A stretch of DNA of 6,663 nucleotides from a virus (IMGVR_UViG_2648501669_000009:1-6663), one strand, 5' to 3'. Shown: positions 878-6,573, counted from the first letter of the stretch. Notes: generated by a model from the letters alone, not told the origin. Program-made: numbers and translations.

Positions 878-1341
878 TGGTTGTCTCCTTTGCGAATCTG
901 TTCCGCACAATGCAACAATGCTTCTGTCACTTCCTTAAGCGTTACAGTATCGGCATCATCCAGTTCTGCAACTTTTGCATGCCTGACAAACGCCGCGCGA
1001 AGCTCGTTAAACGCCACCGCCTGTATATCAGCCAGGAAAGCGTCAGTAGCTGGCGTTTCAGGCTTGAATCCATTTGCATCGCGTGGGCTGATGTCATCGC
1101 TTGTATAAATAAAGCAATCATCCTTAATGAATTTATTTAACCCCACATTCTCCACTGCCAGCGTCGCAAAATTAGCTTCCAGTTCTGCAATGCGTTTGCT
1201 TTGGGCTTCCCGTTCATCCAGCAGTTCCAACACAACCTGAGGTGTGACTTTCATGCGAAATGCCAGCAATTTTTGTGGTGTGGCTGCGATTTTTATTGCT
1301 TCTGCCACATCACGCAGTACCTGGTAATTAATGTTGCTCAC
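874..1341 (-). CDS. Coiled-coil protein, 155 aa, possibly Ead/Ea22-like
   Basis: The track ORF starts at ATG 1368 with no RBS. A GTG at 1341-1339 is preceded by AGGAGG (plus 1348-1353 cctcct) with a 6-nt spacer. The product (VSNINYQVLRDVAEAIK...ELEANFATLAVENVG...) has a predicted coiled-coil N-terminal half. The Ea22 resemblance is from memory only. Confidence 0.65.
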   Translation of the reverse strand: MSNINYQVLRDVAEAIKIAATPQKLLAFRMKVTPQVVLELLDEREAQSKRIAELEANFATLAVENVGLNKFIKDDCFIYTSDDISPRDANGFKPETPATDAFLADIQAVAFNELRAAFVRHAKVAELDDADTVTLKEVTEALLHCAEQIRKGDNQ

Positions 1342-1633
1342 TGGTTGCCTCCTGGAAAATAACTGCATGCCCCAGCTTCTCCGCCAGTGCCAGTTCCGCC
1401 TTAGCGCCTGCTGACCGCTGCCAGCCTTTCAGCATGTAAATCGCATCCACACAACGAATCATTGCCATGCAAATATCCATGTAGTGTGGCTGTGTCAGTC
1501 CGTCCGGAAGTACTGCCGGGTTTAAGACTGTATGCCCTTCCCGTTTCAGTTCCTCTTCCGCCTTGTGAAACGCCTCACGGTTGAAATTTTCATATCCCGT
1601 CATTGGACCGGCGATATAAACCCTCACCCTCAC
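1328..1633 (-). CDS. DUF4406-type protein (nucleoside 2-deoxyribosyltransferase-like fold), 101 aa
   Basis: The N-terminus MRVRVYIAGPMTGYENFN matches the YIAGPMTG signature I associate with the DUF4406 family. GTG start at 1633 with AGGAGG 8 nt upstream; it overlaps the upstream stop as GTGA. Confidence 0.8.
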   Translation of the reverse strand: MRVRVYIAGPMTGYENFNREAFHKAEEELKREGHTVLNPAVLPDGLTQPHYMDICMAMIRCVDAIYMLKGWQRSAGAKAELALAEKLGHAVIFQEATSEQH

Positions 1634-1947
1634 TCCTGTATCCTCCTGTCGAAATAAACATAGTTATTCACCGTGCGCAGCGGCATTTCGAGTTTTTCCG
1701 CTATCTCGCGACGAGAAATACCCTGCTCATGTAGCTTTCGTATCAGCTCAACACTGCTCCAGGGGATTTTTACCGACTGATGAAAATCACCTCGCAATAT
1801 CAGACTGATACCCAGTTCCCGCGCTTTTGTTCTTACTGCCACCTCCGTGCGACCAGTCAGTTTCCCGATATCTTTCACCCGCATGGTGCCAGCACACTGC
1901 CGGAGTATCAGAATTTCAGCCCTGCACCACTTCTTCCAGTTGCTCAC
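1630..1947 (-). CDS. Small DNA-binding protein with helix-turn-helix motifs, 105 aa (alternative start ATG 1884 gives 84 aa)
   Basis: The track ORF 1630-2034 overlaps the upstream gene by 80 nt. A GTG at 1947-1945 lies 5 nt after the upstream TAA and shares the GTGAGCAAC start context of the gene at 1341. HTH-like segments: GKLTGRTEVAVRTKARELGI and ISRREIAEKLEMPLRTVNNYV (NinH-like pattern). The start is not certain. Confidence 0.55.
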   Translation of the reverse strand: MSNWKKWCRAEILILRQCAGTMRVKDIGKLTGRTEVAVRTKARELGISLILRGDFHQSVKIPWSSVELIRKLHEQGISRREIAEKLEMPLRTVNNYVYFDRRIQE

Positions 1948-2715: not shown

Positions 2716-3462
2716 TTACTTCTCAATACCTGGCTGACCAACATTCGGGCGCCAGCTCTCCCAGTTAAAATTCACCCATCGCCCGCCGTTCATGGTCATG
2801 CGATCCATAATCCGCTCGCCGAGCAATGTTTTCATGGCCTCATAGTTCAGGTTTGTCAGCATTCCCACGCTGCGCATCGACGCTGTCCGGCGATCAACAA
2901 TCTGGTGCAGTACCACCTGCTCGTTTTTCGTCTCGCGCTGAATGCCAATTTCATCAAGAACCAGCAGATCCACTTCGCACAGTTCCCGCAAAAATTTTTC
3001 GCCTGATTGCCCGTCGTCATAGCTGGCGTGTAGAGCACTCATAACATCAGCCACGGTAACCACAATCACTGTCTGGCCATCTTTCAGCAGGCGATTCCCG
3101 ATAGCCGCCGCTAAGTGGTTTTTCCCGGTACCAGGTTTTCCGCTGAATGCGAAATTTGTGCATCCGGTCATCAGTTCATCGGCGATGGATTTCACCTGGC
3201 TCAACGCGTATCGCTGGCCGTCATTCTGCACCTGGTAATTCGCAAACGAGCACTTGCGGTGCAACGGCTGGATGCCGGAGCGATTCAGAATTTTTTCCAC
3301 CCGCAACTGACGATTCTGGCGGTTGATCTCCTCGCAACGCTTCTGGCCTTCTGCAAGTTGCCACTCGCGCCACTCGTCCACTGTTCGGTATGGCGCGGTT
3401 ACATGCTGCGGAGCCAGCTTACGGATGCGTTCAAGAACACCGCCTGTCGCAATATTTTTCAT
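2716..3462 (-). CDS. DnaC-like AAA+ helicase loader (lambda P functional analogue; YdaV-type replication protein)
   Basis: Walker [16 protein letters not shown] and Walker B LLVLDEIG, 248 aa. The ATG at 3462 follows the O-like stop by 6 nt, with a GGGGG SD. Confidence 0.9.
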
Positions 3463-3468
3463 GCTTCG

Positions 3469-4416
3469 TTACCCCCTGAATCCCGGCGGAATTTCGGCGT
3501 CCGGCTCGGAAATATGATTCACGCAACGCTGTACAGGCGAACGCCCCAGACGAATAACCAGCTCATCCCATTTTTCGCGAAGCTTTGACGGGCTCATGAC
3601 GTTTTTTACCCAGAATGGATCCCGCTGTGCCCGACCAAACATTTCGCAAATTTGCCTGTGAGTTCTGCCATCAAGCATCCGCATTGTGCGCACGTCATTG
3701 GCCCATGCAGTCCAGTTGGGTTCTTTCGGTCGCATGATTTCGCCATCATCGCTGGCAGCCTGCTCGTAAAGACTCACGATTCGTCCCCAGATCCACTGCG
3801 CACACGCCAAATCTTCCTGGCTGCCCCACTGGCGTTTTTTCGCACTGAACACAACCGCGTCAGGGTGTCGGGTTAAAAAATCCTGTTCAGCCGTCTGCGG
3901 GTCCGGTTGCGAAGCGTCCGGACGAAAAGATCTTTTATCTGACGGATCAGGTTTTAATACTGACGGATCGGGGCCAACCATCGCCCCCCTAACCGGATGT
4001 TTTTTATCAACGGTTGATCCATCAAAATTTGAGGGGTCAACCGTTGAGGGGTCAATATTTGACGGGTCATTTTTTACCGGGTTAATTTTTCTTTTCGGTT
4101 TATATGCCTCACGCGCCGCCGCTGCTGCTGCTTCGAGTTTTTCCACATTAAGACGGTAGATATTGCTTTCATTACGCCCACCGACCTTACGTTCTTCCTT
4201 CGTCAGCCAGCCGTTCTTTTCCAGTTCTGCTATCGCAGCTTTAACCGTTGATTCACTCTTTGCCCCAATCTGACGACGAATGGTCTCCACTGCAGGCCAT
4301 GACACACCTTCGTCATTGCTGTAATCTGCAAGGCGAGCCATTACTGCCACCCTGGATAAGATCATGCCGGTGAAGGCGCACCCTTCCCAGACAAGACCAT
4401 GAAGCTTGCTGCTCAT
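3469..4416 (-). CDS. Phage replication initiation protein (lambda O-like: N-terminal winged-helix DNA-binding domain, repeat/poly-Ala linker, C-terminal domain)
   Basis: 315 aa. The N-terminal domain is HTH-like (VSWPAVETIRRQIGAKSESTVKAAIAELEKNGWL). The central region encodes EAAAAAARE and DPS repeats (DPSNIDPSTVDPSNFDGSTVD) that coincide with DNA iterons. It sits immediately upstream of the DnaC-like gene. GGAG SD 7 nt before ATG 4416. Confidence 0.85.
   Translation of the reverse strand: MSSKLHGLVWEGCAFTGMILSRVAVMARLADYSNDEGVSWPAVETIRRQIGAKSESTVKAAIAELEKNGWLTKEERKVGGRNESNIYRLNVEKLEAAAAAAREAYKPKRKINPVKNDPSNIDPSTVDPSNFDGSTVDKKHPVRGAMVGPDPSVLKPDPSDKRSFRPDASQPDPQTAEQDFLTRHPDAVVFSAKKRQWGSQEDLACAQWIWGRIVSLYEQAASDDGEIMRPKEPNWTAWANDVRTMRMLDGRTHRQICEMFGRAQRDPFWVKNVMSPSKLREKWDELVIRLGRSPVQRCVNHISEPDAEIPPGFRG
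3940..4074. repeat. Iteron-like direct repeats (core TGA[C/G]GG[A/G]TCA, at least 5 copies) inside the O-like gene, followed by an AT-rich tract: putative prophage replication origin
   Basis: Copies at 3940-3949 tgacggatca, 3961-3970 tgacggatcg, 4030-4039 tgaggggtca, 4045-4054 tgaggggtca and 4060-4069 tgacgggtca, the last three as tandem 15-bp units. Inverted repeats tcaacggttga (4008-4018) and tcaaccgttga (4037-4047). AT-rich tract about 4069-4105. Confidence 0.6.
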
Positions 4417-4440: not shown

Positions 4441-4866
4441 TTAGTGCATCACCAAGGCATTTCCCGCCGGACCACCACGATTCATCTGATTGAAACCAGC
4501 GATCGCCACTGCGACAAAATCATCAGCGTCTCTCACCAGTCGTTCCCGCGTCTCCACCAGCTCCCGAAACCAGGCTGAACTGTGGCTGCGCATTCGGGCC
4601 ACCAGCAGAGGAGGCATTGCTTTTTCGATCGCTGGTAACAACGCCTGAATTTTTTTAACCGCATCAGGGGTGTCTTTCTCCACCCAGCGGAAAATTTTCT
4701 GAGTATTGCGAGCCAGGGCTTCCGGATGGCTGTCGTCATATAATTCCGGGAACGTCATACCCAGCTCAAAATAAGCCCGGGTTATTTCAGCTGCCGGAAC
4801 TTTTTCACCGTCCGGATGCGCCCAGGCATTCATCGCCATGCGGATGTGTTCATGCTTGATTTTCAT
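4441..4866 (-). CDS. ydaT: YdaT-family protein (CII-like regulator of Rac/CP-933P-type prophages), 141 aa
   Basis: N-terminus MKIKHEHI. Its ATG overlaps the ydaS-like stop as ATGA (4866-4863). Second gene of the rightward-early-type operon, directly before the O-like gene. Confidence 0.8.
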   Translation of the reverse strand: MKIKHEHIRMAMNAWAHPDGEKVPAAEITRAYFELGMTFPELYDDSHPEALARNTQKIFRWVEKDTPDAVKKIQALLPAIEKAMPPLLVARMRSHSSAWFRELVETRERLVRDADDFVAVAIAGFNQMNRGGPAGNALVMH

Positions 4867-5165
4867 GAATCAACTCCATCAGATAAGCATGCACTACAAT
4901 CACCTTCAGCATGAACTACATGTGTTTGCCCCAAACGAATGCCGCTCGCATACTCAGGCCAAATAAGCTCCCAATCATGGGGTCGTAGCTCCGCCCTACT
5001 TACTTGGCCTTCCGTCGCAGATTCGATCATAAGGGCGCGGGTTGGAGATATAGCTGCTCGTCCAGACGCCATTTGCGATAAGTAAGATGGCGATACACCA
5101 AGTCTGGCCGCGAATTTCTTAGCATCACCAACCCTCAATGATTTAATAAACTCTTTTAATGTCAT
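4863..5165 (-). CDS. ydaS: YdaS-family Cro-like HTH regulator, 100 aa
   Basis: HTH DAKKFAARLGVSPSYLSQMASGRAAISPTRALMIESAT. First gene transcribed divergently from the repressor gene. GAGGAAGG SD before ATG 5165. Confidence 0.8.
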   Translation of the reverse strand: MTLKEFIKSLRVGDAKKFAARLGVSPSYLSQMASGRAAISPTRALMIESATEGQVSRAELRPHDWELIWPEYASGIRLGQTHVVHAEGDCSACLSDGVDS

Positions 5166-5175
5166 ACCTTCCTCG

Positions 5176-5251
5176 GTTTAGTGTTTTTTTGTGAGTTTAG
5201 TGTTTAATAAACCATTAAGTCAAGTATTTGCTTGTTTAGTGATTACTAAAG
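5176..5251. promoter_or_regulatory. OR-like operator cluster: three 18-bp sites each starting GTTTAGTG
   Basis: Sites at 5176-5193 gtttagtgtttttttgtg, 5195-5212 gtttagtgtttaataaac (GTTTA-N8-TAAAC dyad) and 5234-5251 gtttagtgattactaaag, all in the 97-bp interval between the divergent ydaS-like and repressor genes. Confidence 0.5.
5194..5223 (-). promoter_or_regulatory. PR-like sigma70 promoter for the ydaS-ydaT-O-DnaC operon
   Basis: Minus-strand -35 TTGACT (plus 5218-5223), 18-nt spacer, -10 TAAACT (plus 5194-5199). The operator at 5195-5212 covers the spacer and -10. Confidence 0.4.
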
Positions 5252-5256
5252 ATAAT
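5228..5256 (+). promoter_or_regulatory. PRM-like promoter for the repressor operon; predicted leaderless mRNA
   Basis: -35 TTGCTT (5228-5233), 17-nt spacer, -10 GATAAT (5251-5256). The ATG at 5263 lies 6 nt after the -10 with no SD, so the transcript would start at or next to the start codon. Confidence 0.45.
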
Positions 5257-5262
5257 TACCGC

Positions 5263-5634
5263 ATGCAAAAAAAAGAAATTCGCCGTTTACGTCTCAAGGA
5301 GTGGTTTAAAGATAAAACTCTGCCACCCAAAGAGAAGAGCTACCTATCTCAACTAATGAGTGGGAGGGCCTCGTTTGGAGAAAAGGCTGCCAGAAGAATA
5401 GAGCAAACATACGGGATGCCGGAAGGGTATCTGGATGCGGAATACGCAGAACAACCGGAAGTTTCTCCACCACATGCAGGGTTAACGTCTAATCAACTGG
5501 AATTATTGCAGATTTTTTCAGCCTTCCCTGAGGATGAGCAACGCCAGATAATCAGCGAGTTAAAGCAGAAAAAAGAATCAATGGAAGATCTCATAGCGAG
5601 ATGGATTGCGGCGCAAAAATGCCGCCGCGCCTGA
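5263..5634 (+). CDS. paaR2: XRE-family HTH repressor (CI-like prophage repressor; PaaR2-type regulator of a three-gene TA operon), 123 aa
   Basis: The track ORF begins at GTG 5191, only 25 nt from the divergent gene. The ATG at 5263 leaves room for both promoters. HTH KSYLSQLMSGRASFGEKAARRIEQTYGMPEGYLD. Divergent from the Cro-like gene and followed by an antitoxin-toxin pair. Confidence 0.7.
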   Translation: MQKKEIRRLRLKEWFKDKTLPPKEKSYLSQLMSGRASFGEKAARRIEQTYGMPEGYLDAEYAEQPEVSPPHAGLTSNQLELLQIFSAFPEDEQRQIISELKQKKESMEDLIARWIAAQKCRRA

Positions 5635-5654
5635 GTTATAAAACCGGAGGAAAC

Positions 5655-5846
5655 ATGAATAGAGCCCTTTCACCAATGGTTTCTGAATTTGAAACCATTG
5701 AACAAGAAAACAGTTACAACGAATGGCTGCGTGCGAAAGTAGCAACGAGCCTTGCAGATCCGCGCCCAGCAATTCCCCATGACGAAGTTGAGCGCAGAAT
5801 GGCAGAACGCTTTGCTAAAATGCGCAAGGAACGGAGCAAGCAGTAA
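5655..5846 (+). CDS. paaA2: PaaA2-type antitoxin, 63 aa
   Basis: The track ORF starts at ATG 5601 inside the repressor gene. The ATG at 5655 is preceded by GGAGGA (5645-5650). The 63-aa product (MNRALSPMVSEFETIEQENSYNEWLRAKVATSLADPRPAIPHDEVERRMAERFAKMRKERSKQ) matches the length and character I recall for PaaA2. Confidence 0.8.
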   Translation: MNRALSPMVSEFETIEQENSYNEWLRAKVATSLADPRPAIPHDEVERRMAERFAKMRKERSKQ

Positions 5847-5847
5847 A

Positions 5848-6126
5848 ATGTTACCCGTGTTATGGCTTGAAAGCGCAGATACCGACCTAGATGATATAGC
5901 TAGCTATATTGCTCGTTTCGACATAGATGCGGCTGAACGCTTATGGCAGCGATTAAGGGGTTGTGTGCTGCCGTTATCCGAACATCCGTATTTATACCCA
6001 CCAAGCGACAGAGTACCTGGCTTGCGTGAGATTGTAGCCCACCCTAACTATATAATTCTATACCGCGTAACAACATCAAGCGTTGAAGTAGTAAACGTGA
6101 TCCACGCAAGACGCCAGTTTCCCTAA
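5848..6126 (+). CDS. parE2: ParE-family toxin (ParE2-type), 92 aa
   Basis: ATG 5848 lies 1 nt after the antitoxin TAA (TAAaATG). The product MLPVLWLESADTDLDDIASYIARFDIDAAERLWQRL...ILYRVTTSSVEVVNVIHARRQFP has a ParE/RelE-like layout. The longer track ORF from 5752 is an in-frame upstream extension overlapping the antitoxin. Confidence 0.85.
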   Translation: MLPVLWLESADTDLDDIASYIARFDIDAAERLWQRLRGCVLPLSEHPYLYPPSDRVPGLREIVAHPNYIILYRVTTSSVEVVNVIHARRQFP

Positions 6127-6238: not shown

Positions 6239-6417
6239 AAAAATACCAACCCACCCCGCCCCACAGAATGCAGGGCAATACTTCGAGTTACCAGGCAGTG
6301 GTCAGGGGTTAAGTAGCCAGCCCGAGGCGTAAGAACATGACGGCAGGGTTCAACTTTAATAACTATGCAGCAGGTTTTTGTTCCGCTACCCCGGCGTTAA
6401 GGGGAAATGAGGTCAGC

Positions 6418-6573
6418 ATGGATACTATCGATCTTGGCAACAACGAATCTCTGGTGTACGGCGTGTTTCTCAACCAGGACGGTACGTTCACCGCGATGAC
6501 GTATACCAAAAGCAAAACGTTTAAAACCGAATCTGGCGCGCGTCGCTGGCTGGAAAGAAATTCAGGTGAGTGA
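6418..6573 (+). CDS. Small early-left protein, 51 aa (I believe it resembles Rac YdaF, unverified)
   Basis: ATG 6418 with GAGG 5 nt upstream. Product MDTIDLGNNESLVYGVFLNQDGTFTAMTYTKSKTFKTESGARRWLERNSGE. The track start at 6337 has no SD and would give 78 aa. Confidence 0.6.
   Translation: MDTIDLGNNESLVYGVFLNQDGTFTAMTYTKSKTFKTESGARRWLERNSGE

Follow-up and report, generated by a model that had tools for sequence, protein, structure and literature searches.

A 101-residue protein encoded in the early operon of an Escherichia coli prophage may be a 2′-deoxynucleoside 5′-monophosphate N-glycosidase with the nucleotide pool as its target, a reading to which we assign a probability of roughly 45%. 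The protein belongs to the DUF4406 family. Its gene lies in the window, by which we mean the whole 6,663-nucleotide stretch of viral DNA analysed here (IMGVR_UViG_2648501669_000009:1-6663). Below we set out the gene and its operon, the family and its fold, the residues expected to form the active site, and the genes that accompany DUF4406 in other phages, and we weigh the alternative functions against this evidence.

The DUF4406 gene within the early operon

The window comes from a lambdoid, Rac-like prophage of E. coli and covers its immunity and early-right region, with the early genes on the minus strand. A repressor-side module is encoded on the plus strand (5191-6126). On the minus strand, an unbroken, co-directional array comprises, in order, a cro/YdaS-like gene (4863-5165), a YdaT/CII-like gene (4441-4866), an O-like initiator (3469-4416), a DnaC-like loader (2716-3462), DUF1627/YdaW (1953-2744), a LygF-like helix-turn-helix (HTH) DNA-binding protein (1630-1947), the DUF4406 gene (1328-1633) and an Ead/Ea22-like gene (874-1341). 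Two small phage ORFs occupy 319-910 on the same strand. On the minus strand, no terminator-like site was found from the cro-like gene through to the last gene of the array.

The DUF4406 coding sequence begins at a GTG, ends at a TAA and is supported by the ORF list, Pfam, PGAP, the dN/dS analysis and the AlphaFold2 model; translation gives MRVRVYIAGPMTG at the N-terminus of its product. The start codon overlaps the TGA stop of the upstream HTH gene in the sequence GTGA (1630-1633, minus strand), and a Shine-Dalgarno-like AGGAGG (1642-1647, minus strand) can be read 8 nt 5′ of the GTG. The GTGA junction was kept in all 80 related IMG/VR prophage loci. In these, either a LygF-like or a DUF977 gene lies upstream, two unrelated kinds, and the overlap persists with both. 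The AGGAGG is present at similar spacing in nearly all of the related junction types, occasionally with one base changed. A further in-frame GTG, at 1627, is frequently lost among the related loci by mutation or deletion and is thus not conserved, which identifies the first GTG as the start. PGAP annotation of NZ_CP182374, a 98.4%-identical E. coli genome, gives the same 306-nt coding sequence, which overlaps its neighbours by 4 nt and 14 nt as it does here. The preliminary description of this DNA had proposed this reading frame, its GTG start and its translational coupling into the early operon. All three hold up: PGAP calls the same coding sequence, the first GTG is kept at related loci, and the GTGA overlap joins the gene to a tight array that contains the O-like and DnaC-like genes and is free of terminator-like sites.

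The IMG/VR locus scan returned near-identical E. coli prophages only, and it served to examine the start codon and selection rather than diverse genomic context. In an alignment anchored on the YIAGP motif, 51 distinct alleles of the DUF4406 gene gave a dN/dS of 0.07–0.09 (about 0.08), with no stop codons and no disrupted copies. Strong purifying selection acts on this gene.

The genes on either side probably start later than their longest ORFs would indicate. The upstream gene, identified by a Pfam HTH match, by PGAP as a 318-nt "DNA-binding protein" and by lygF of Rac-SA53, probably starts at the GTG at 1947 rather than at 2034 (longest ORF 1630-2034). The downstream Ead/Ea22-like gene (Pfam PF13935), which overlaps the DUF4406 gene by 14 nt in the PGAP annotation, probably starts at the GTG at 1341 (longest ORF 874-1368); an AGGAGG lies 6 nt 5′ of this codon, and the match to PHROG 368 begins at residue 10 of the long ORF. 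Both shorter starts agree with PGAP in the related genome and with the beginnings of the PHROG matches.

Several other features of the region were recorded. The cro-like and CII-like genes (4441-5165, minus strand) match Pfam "YdaS_toxin" and "YdaT_toxin"; their position suggests that they are early regulators rather than toxins. The plus-strand trio at 5191-6126 opens with an HTH-type ORF that has no Pfam match (5191-5634); a PaaA2 "stability determinant" (PF21217; 5601-5846) follows, and then a ParE toxin (PF05016; 5752-6126). In its make-up the trio is like PaaR2-PaaA2-ParE2, a toxin-antitoxin system of E. coli prophages, and it is also annotated in NZ_CP182374. A DUF1391 ORF (PF07151, E 3.8e-27) at 6337-6573 on the plus strand is typical of the left arms of Rac/Qin-type prophages. 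In the closest complete genome, beyond the extent of the window, the DUF4406/Ead block is followed on its 3′ side by a Ser/Thr kinase and PP2C phosphatase pair on the opposite strand (L002:3405-4899), and the same region carries a Hok/Gef gene and then DUF968, RusA and Q.

Family membership and modelled fold

The protein matches Pfam PF14359 (DUF4406) with an E-value of 1.4e-37 and 128.4 bits against a cut-off of 22, over profile positions 2-91 of 91, and PHROG 355, "nucleoside 2-deoxyribosyltransferase", at 1.6e-48. A search of NCBIfam with the same protein gave no match. All of the family-invariant residues are present: the YIAGP...G motif, F22, P43, Y51, W71 and the S-x-G-A-x-x-E motif, conservation having been counted over two sets of 75 and 54 diverse homologues.

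DUF4406 is a common and already catalogued prophage gene. Of 5426 complete E. coli genomes, 1224 (22%) contain DNA of at least 80% identity to it, nearly always on the chromosome, and these copies are annotated "DUF4406 domain-containing protein". The closest named phage locus is in Rac-SA53 (KU052037), where "rac19, hypothetical protein" has 96% amino-acid identity to the window protein and the gene order, ydaU, ydaV, ydaW, lygF, rac19, ead, is that of the window. From PF14359 members such as rac19 the window protein shows no substantive difference; it is one of them. At a threshold of E ≤ 1e-3, an exhaustive HMMER search recovered 12,269 representatives of clusters built at 50% identity. By tblastn, the window protein located the family in 327 phage records, and a mycobacteriophage member used as query located it in 614. 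A Pfam scan of 54 longer homologues revealed almost no informative fusions; the HTH, DUF551 and DUF7768 domains that it did find are probably gene-calling artefacts or unrelated fusions. The contigs encoding distant homologues were short and added no context.

AlphaFold2, given 75 homologues, produced a model with a mean pLDDT of 92.5 and a pTM of 0.85. The predicted structure is a four-stranded beta/alpha domain with strands at residues 4-8, 35-37, 64-67 and 90-93 and helices at 15-31, 48-59 and 75-87. Foldseek comparison of the model with the PDB placed nucleoside and purine deoxyribosyltransferases first (2A0K, E 1.8e-5; 6QAI, 8PQT, 6EVS and 7O62), followed by DNPH1, MilB and BcmB, with TM scores of about 0.72 on the query length. 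The family profile matches TbPDT at E 7.7e-4. A sequence search of the PDB with the single protein found nothing; what could be learned came from the profile and fold searches. These fold and profile matches establish that the kinship to deoxyribosyltransferases and to dNMP and NMP N-glycosidases is real.

On the model, the protein is a minimal member of the nucleoside 2-deoxyribosyltransferase (NDT) superfamily, with four strands and about 95 residues in the Rossmann-like alpha/beta fold that NDT, DNPH1 and MilB have in common. It stops 8 residues past the fourth strand, and the matched targets are 125–160 residues long. The C-terminal segment that completes the active site of the partner subunit, and that supplies a second phosphate or base ligand in DNPH1 and NDT, is absent. 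DUF1937, represented by the structural-genomics protein APC5043 (PDB 1T1J), shares 17% identity with the window protein and adds no functional information.

The preliminary description had placed the gene in DUF4406, naming an HMM search as the check, and had related the family to deoxyribosyltransferases and dNMP N-glycosidases while calling its role in phages unknown. The full-length PF14359 match confirms the first point, and the profile and fold matches to TbPDT, DNPH1, MilB and BcmB support the second. As to the third, a literature search on DUF4406, PF14359 and DUF1937 found three papers that name DUF4406, none that names DUF1937, and no functional study.

Predicted active-site residues and the Asp/Cys split

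Residue equivalences were taken from three alignments, made with HMMER against TbPDT, with HMMER against BcmB and with hhalign against human DNPH1, whose query sequence was checked against the PDB chains. All three agree, and the equivalences rest on weak alignments (E 0.03–0.2) together with the fold match rather than on three-dimensional superposition. The catalytic triad of DNPH1 consists of Y24, D80 and E104, and the 5′-phosphate is bound by S98 (PMC10603095).

Three of the corresponding positions are strongly conserved in DUF4406. Tyr6 (codon 1616-1618, minus strand), at the end of strand 1, aligns with Y24 of DNPH1 and Tyr6 of DmtZ; this position is Tyr in 66 and Phe in 7 of the 75 diverse homologues. 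Glu80 (codon 1394-1396, minus strand), the predicted catalytic nucleophile, aligns with E104 of DNPH1 and with the catalytic Glu of TbPDT and BcmB, and is conserved in 74 of the 75. Six residues before it, Ser74 (codon 1412-1414, minus strand) aligns with S98 of DNPH1, a Ser of BcmB and an Asp of TbPDT, and is invariant in both sets (75/75 and 54/54; 129 sequences). NDT-type transferases hold the 5′-OH with an Asp or Asn at this place, and 5′-monophosphate hydrolases have a small uncharged residue there (PMC12884076). The transferase-type Asp/Asn six residues before the nucleophile is not present in the window protein, which has Ser74 instead. The Tyr is held to exclude 2′-OH (ribose) sugars, as stated in PMC12884076 with reference to Sikowitz 2013.

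The fourth position departs from the superfamily pattern. The canonical general-acid Asp/Asn, expected 8 residues ahead of the conserved Asp that leads into the next strand, is not present; all three alignments put Cys55 (codon 1469-1471, minus strand) at this place, opposite D80 of DNPH1. Of the 75 diverse homologues, 53 have Cys and 9 have Asp at position 55, and Cys stands there in 95 of 95 close homologues. D53 was considered as the catalytic Asp and rejected: it is conserved in only 38 of the 75, and the three alignments place Cys55 at the position in question. The preliminary description had made conservation of the catalytic site a test of its assignment, and the outcome is divided, with the nucleophilic Glu and the Tyr kept and the general-acid Asp replaced by Cys55 in this clade.

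Fourteen additional phage proteins show how position 55 is distributed. Asp is found in 9 of the 14, usually within a Y-L-R-R-D-L motif, and most actinophage, Pseudomonas-phage and Rhizobium-phage proteins are of this kind; the exceptions among Arthrobacter phages are Abidatro (Ala) and Tophat (Gly). The E. coli protein and the members from Vibrio and Aeromonas phages have Cys55 within Y-M-x-I-C-M, and the lone Oceanospirillum-phage member has Gly. As judged from these alignments, DUF4406 splits into an Asp55 type, with the full predicted Tyr-Asp-Glu triad, and a Cys55 type. The replacement of the general-acid Asp by Cys55 means that base specificity or leaving-group chemistry probably differs from that of DNPH1 and of the Asp-bearing DUF4406 relatives.

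Partners in other phages and candidate functions

Across about 15 phage loci, the DUF4406 gene lies within early replication and recombination modules, and a dNTP pyrophosphohydrolase is its recurring partner. In Redno2, gp158 is a fusion of DUF4406 with a PRA-PH/MazG domain, and gp159 belongs to PF18909, the dATP/dGTP diphosphohydrolase N-terminal domain family. PF18909 proteins are also encoded next to or near DUF4406 in Cjw1 (gp114) and MalagasyRose (gp54), and a PF04447 dATP/dGTP pyrophosphohydrolase gene lies immediately upstream of DUF4406 in Pseudomonas phage AUS531phi. MazG-like genes are found two genes from DUF4406 in Courthouse, with a Pfam PRA-PH match just below the cut-off (E 4.2e-4; 21.1 bits against 21.3), and in Jams, by record annotation only and with no Pfam match. 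Fold matches in BFVD include entries named [quoted passage not shown]. This association of the relatives with dNTP pyrophosphohydrolases points to nucleotide-pool metabolism. The fusion and adjacency partners all belong to loci of the Asp55 type, and no dNTP pyrophosphatase neighbour was seen in four Cys55-type contexts (E. coli, Vibrio phage Her, Aeromonas phage 56 and Rac-SA53).

Some of the GenBank names at these loci are in error. Courthouse gp159 (L083:2477-2857), annotated "MazG-like pyrophosphatase", was considered as a MazG fusion and rejected: it contains only DUF4406, the actual fusion being that of Redno2. Abidatro gp53 (L093:1977-2363), "deoxycytidylate deaminase", likewise contains only DUF4406, and Cjw1 gp114 (L090:2327-2806) and Redno2 gp159 (L092:2723-3208), both recorded as "endolysin; inhibits RNA polymerase", are the PF18909 proteins described above. 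Separately, DNA methyltransferase or Mom-like genes occur within about 2 kb of DUF4406 in several unrelated phages, which may be chance in early regions, and in Oceanospirillum phage PD0307 an Nmad5 "nucleotide modification associated" protein is encoded directly upstream of DUF4406.

If the protein is a dNMP N-glycosidase, the best supported of the functions considered here, its chemistry can be sketched from the residues described above. A published phage precedent for such an enzyme is DmtZ, described below. Tyr6 would position Glu80, hold the dNMP and exclude substrates with a 2′-OH; Ser74 would accommodate the 5′-phosphate; and Glu80 would attack C1′ to release the free base, after which the enzyme-bound deoxyribose 5-phosphate would be hydrolysed. 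Made from the early-right transcript together with the replication proteins, the enzyme may cut back or sanitise one dNMP species of the pool while replication proceeds. Against this reading, the sequence comparisons set Cys55 at the acid position, pyrophosphatase partners confined to the Asp55 clade, and the missing C-terminal extension. The related hydrolase DNPH1/Rcl (2′-deoxynucleoside 5′-phosphate N-hydrolase; PDB 4P5E, 8QHQ and 4FYH) has about 20% identity to the window protein. It has a Ser phosphate ligand six residues before the nucleophile, for which Ser74 is the apparent counterpart. In contrast, its shielding loop, its E55/H56 helix and its helical extension with S128′ are absent from the window protein, which has 101 residues to the approximately 145 of DNPH1 and aligns Cys55 with D80.

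The preliminary description had put forward a counter-defence role. An enzyme of this kind would destroy nucleotide-derived immune signals, for example cyclic oligonucleotides and isomers of cADPR, or else an alarm ligand like m6-dAMP. We regard this as unlikely, and nothing in the analysis spoke directly for it. PADLOC gave no match, a result that says little either way because PADLOC covers defence systems and not anti-defence proteins, and a literature search found no report of DUF4406 as an anti-defence factor. No known anti-defence gene was seen as a neighbour, the relatives associating instead with dNTP pyrophosphatases and replication genes, and the presence of the gene in the prophages of more than a fifth of complete E. 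coli genomes also counts against such a role. By analogy, the conserved Tyr6 would exclude 2′-OH sugars, which disfavours cyclic-ribonucleotide and NAD-derived signals as substrates. A narrower form is conceivable as conjecture, since a dNMP-type alarm ligand does exist: m6-dAMP activates PUA-Cal-HAD (PMC12871103).

A true nucleoside 2′-deoxyribosyltransferase, swapping bases between deoxynucleosides for salvage, is what the name of PHROG 355 and many GenBank records would imply, and it finds further support in the best Foldseek matches, which are NDTs and PDTs, and in the conservation of Tyr6 and Glu80. We nevertheless consider it quite improbable. The Asp that binds the 5′-OH in these enzymes is replaced by an invariant Ser, as in the 5′-phosphate-specific hydrolases, the C-terminal segment that closes the site is absent, and the record names are homology transfers, several of them plainly wrong. 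The Lactobacillus and Trypanosoma NDT/PDT enzymes and the CMP N-glycosidases MilB and BcmB share with the window protein the fold and the S/D-x-G-x-x-x-E nucleophile loop; the transferases differ in having Asp at the Ser74 position, and MilB and BcmB have Phe in place of the Tyr, giving ribo specificity as cited in PMC12884076.

Much the same low probability attaches to a phosphodeoxyribosyltransferase of the DmtZ type, which would move deoxyribose 5-phosphate from a dNMP to another base and so remodel the pool beyond hydrolysis. DmtZ, from Z-genome phages (Gordonia phage Ghobes, Arthrobacter phage Wayne), is a dAMP hydrolase/phosphodeoxyribosyltransferase that acts after a dATPase (PMC12884076). 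It demonstrates that such chemistry exists in phage enzymes of the NDT superfamily, the predicted substrate class is the same, and its place beside or fused to a dNTP pyrophosphatase is like the arrangement of the Asp55-type DUF4406 proteins. However, DmtZ has no Pfam match, five strands, about 145 residues and an Asn as general acid, and it serves the synthesis of 2-aminoadenine DNA, whereas the window prophage has no PurZ-type context. A further point against this possibility is that non-canonical bases are not known from lambdoid E. coli phages.

It is similarly hard to credit that the protein has kept the fold and lost full catalytic competence, acting as a non-catalytic nucleotide-binding sponge or regulator. 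The change of the general-acid Asp to Cys55, and the minimal domain without the partner-subunit segment, would fit such a role; however, Glu80, Ser74 and Tyr6 hardly vary among the thousands of clusters, and Cys55 is conserved among close homologues rather than drifting. Least probable of all, in our estimate, is that the Cys55 clade of enterobacterial, Vibrio and Aeromonas phages constitutes a distinct enzyme type, a minimal NDT-fold N-glycosidase bearing a thiol where the general acid would be and suited to modified or other unusual dNMPs, such as methylated dNMPs from degraded DNA, whose removal would blunt sensors like PUA-Cal-HAD and sanitise the pool as well, a role with which the recurring DNA methyltransferase genes near DUF4406 are compatible.

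The finding of a DUF4406 gene in this prophage is not in itself news, since such genes are annotated routinely in databases; public annotation already covers this very gene, its family and the tie of that family to the superfamily. What the present analysis adds are the checks of start codon and selection, the residue-level reading of Ser74 and Cys55, the division of the family into Asp and Cys clades and the tie between the Asp clade and dNTP pyrophosphatases. Any relevance of DUF4406 to anti-defence is speculative. The split at the general-acid position yields a concrete hypothesis open to mutagenesis. DUF4406 is very widespread, forming over 12,000 clusters when grouped at 50% identity, and is present in hundreds of phage genomes and about one-fifth of complete E. 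coli genomes; if its members are dNMP N-glycosidases, they would add a base-removal step to the toolkit with which phages reshape nucleotide pools.
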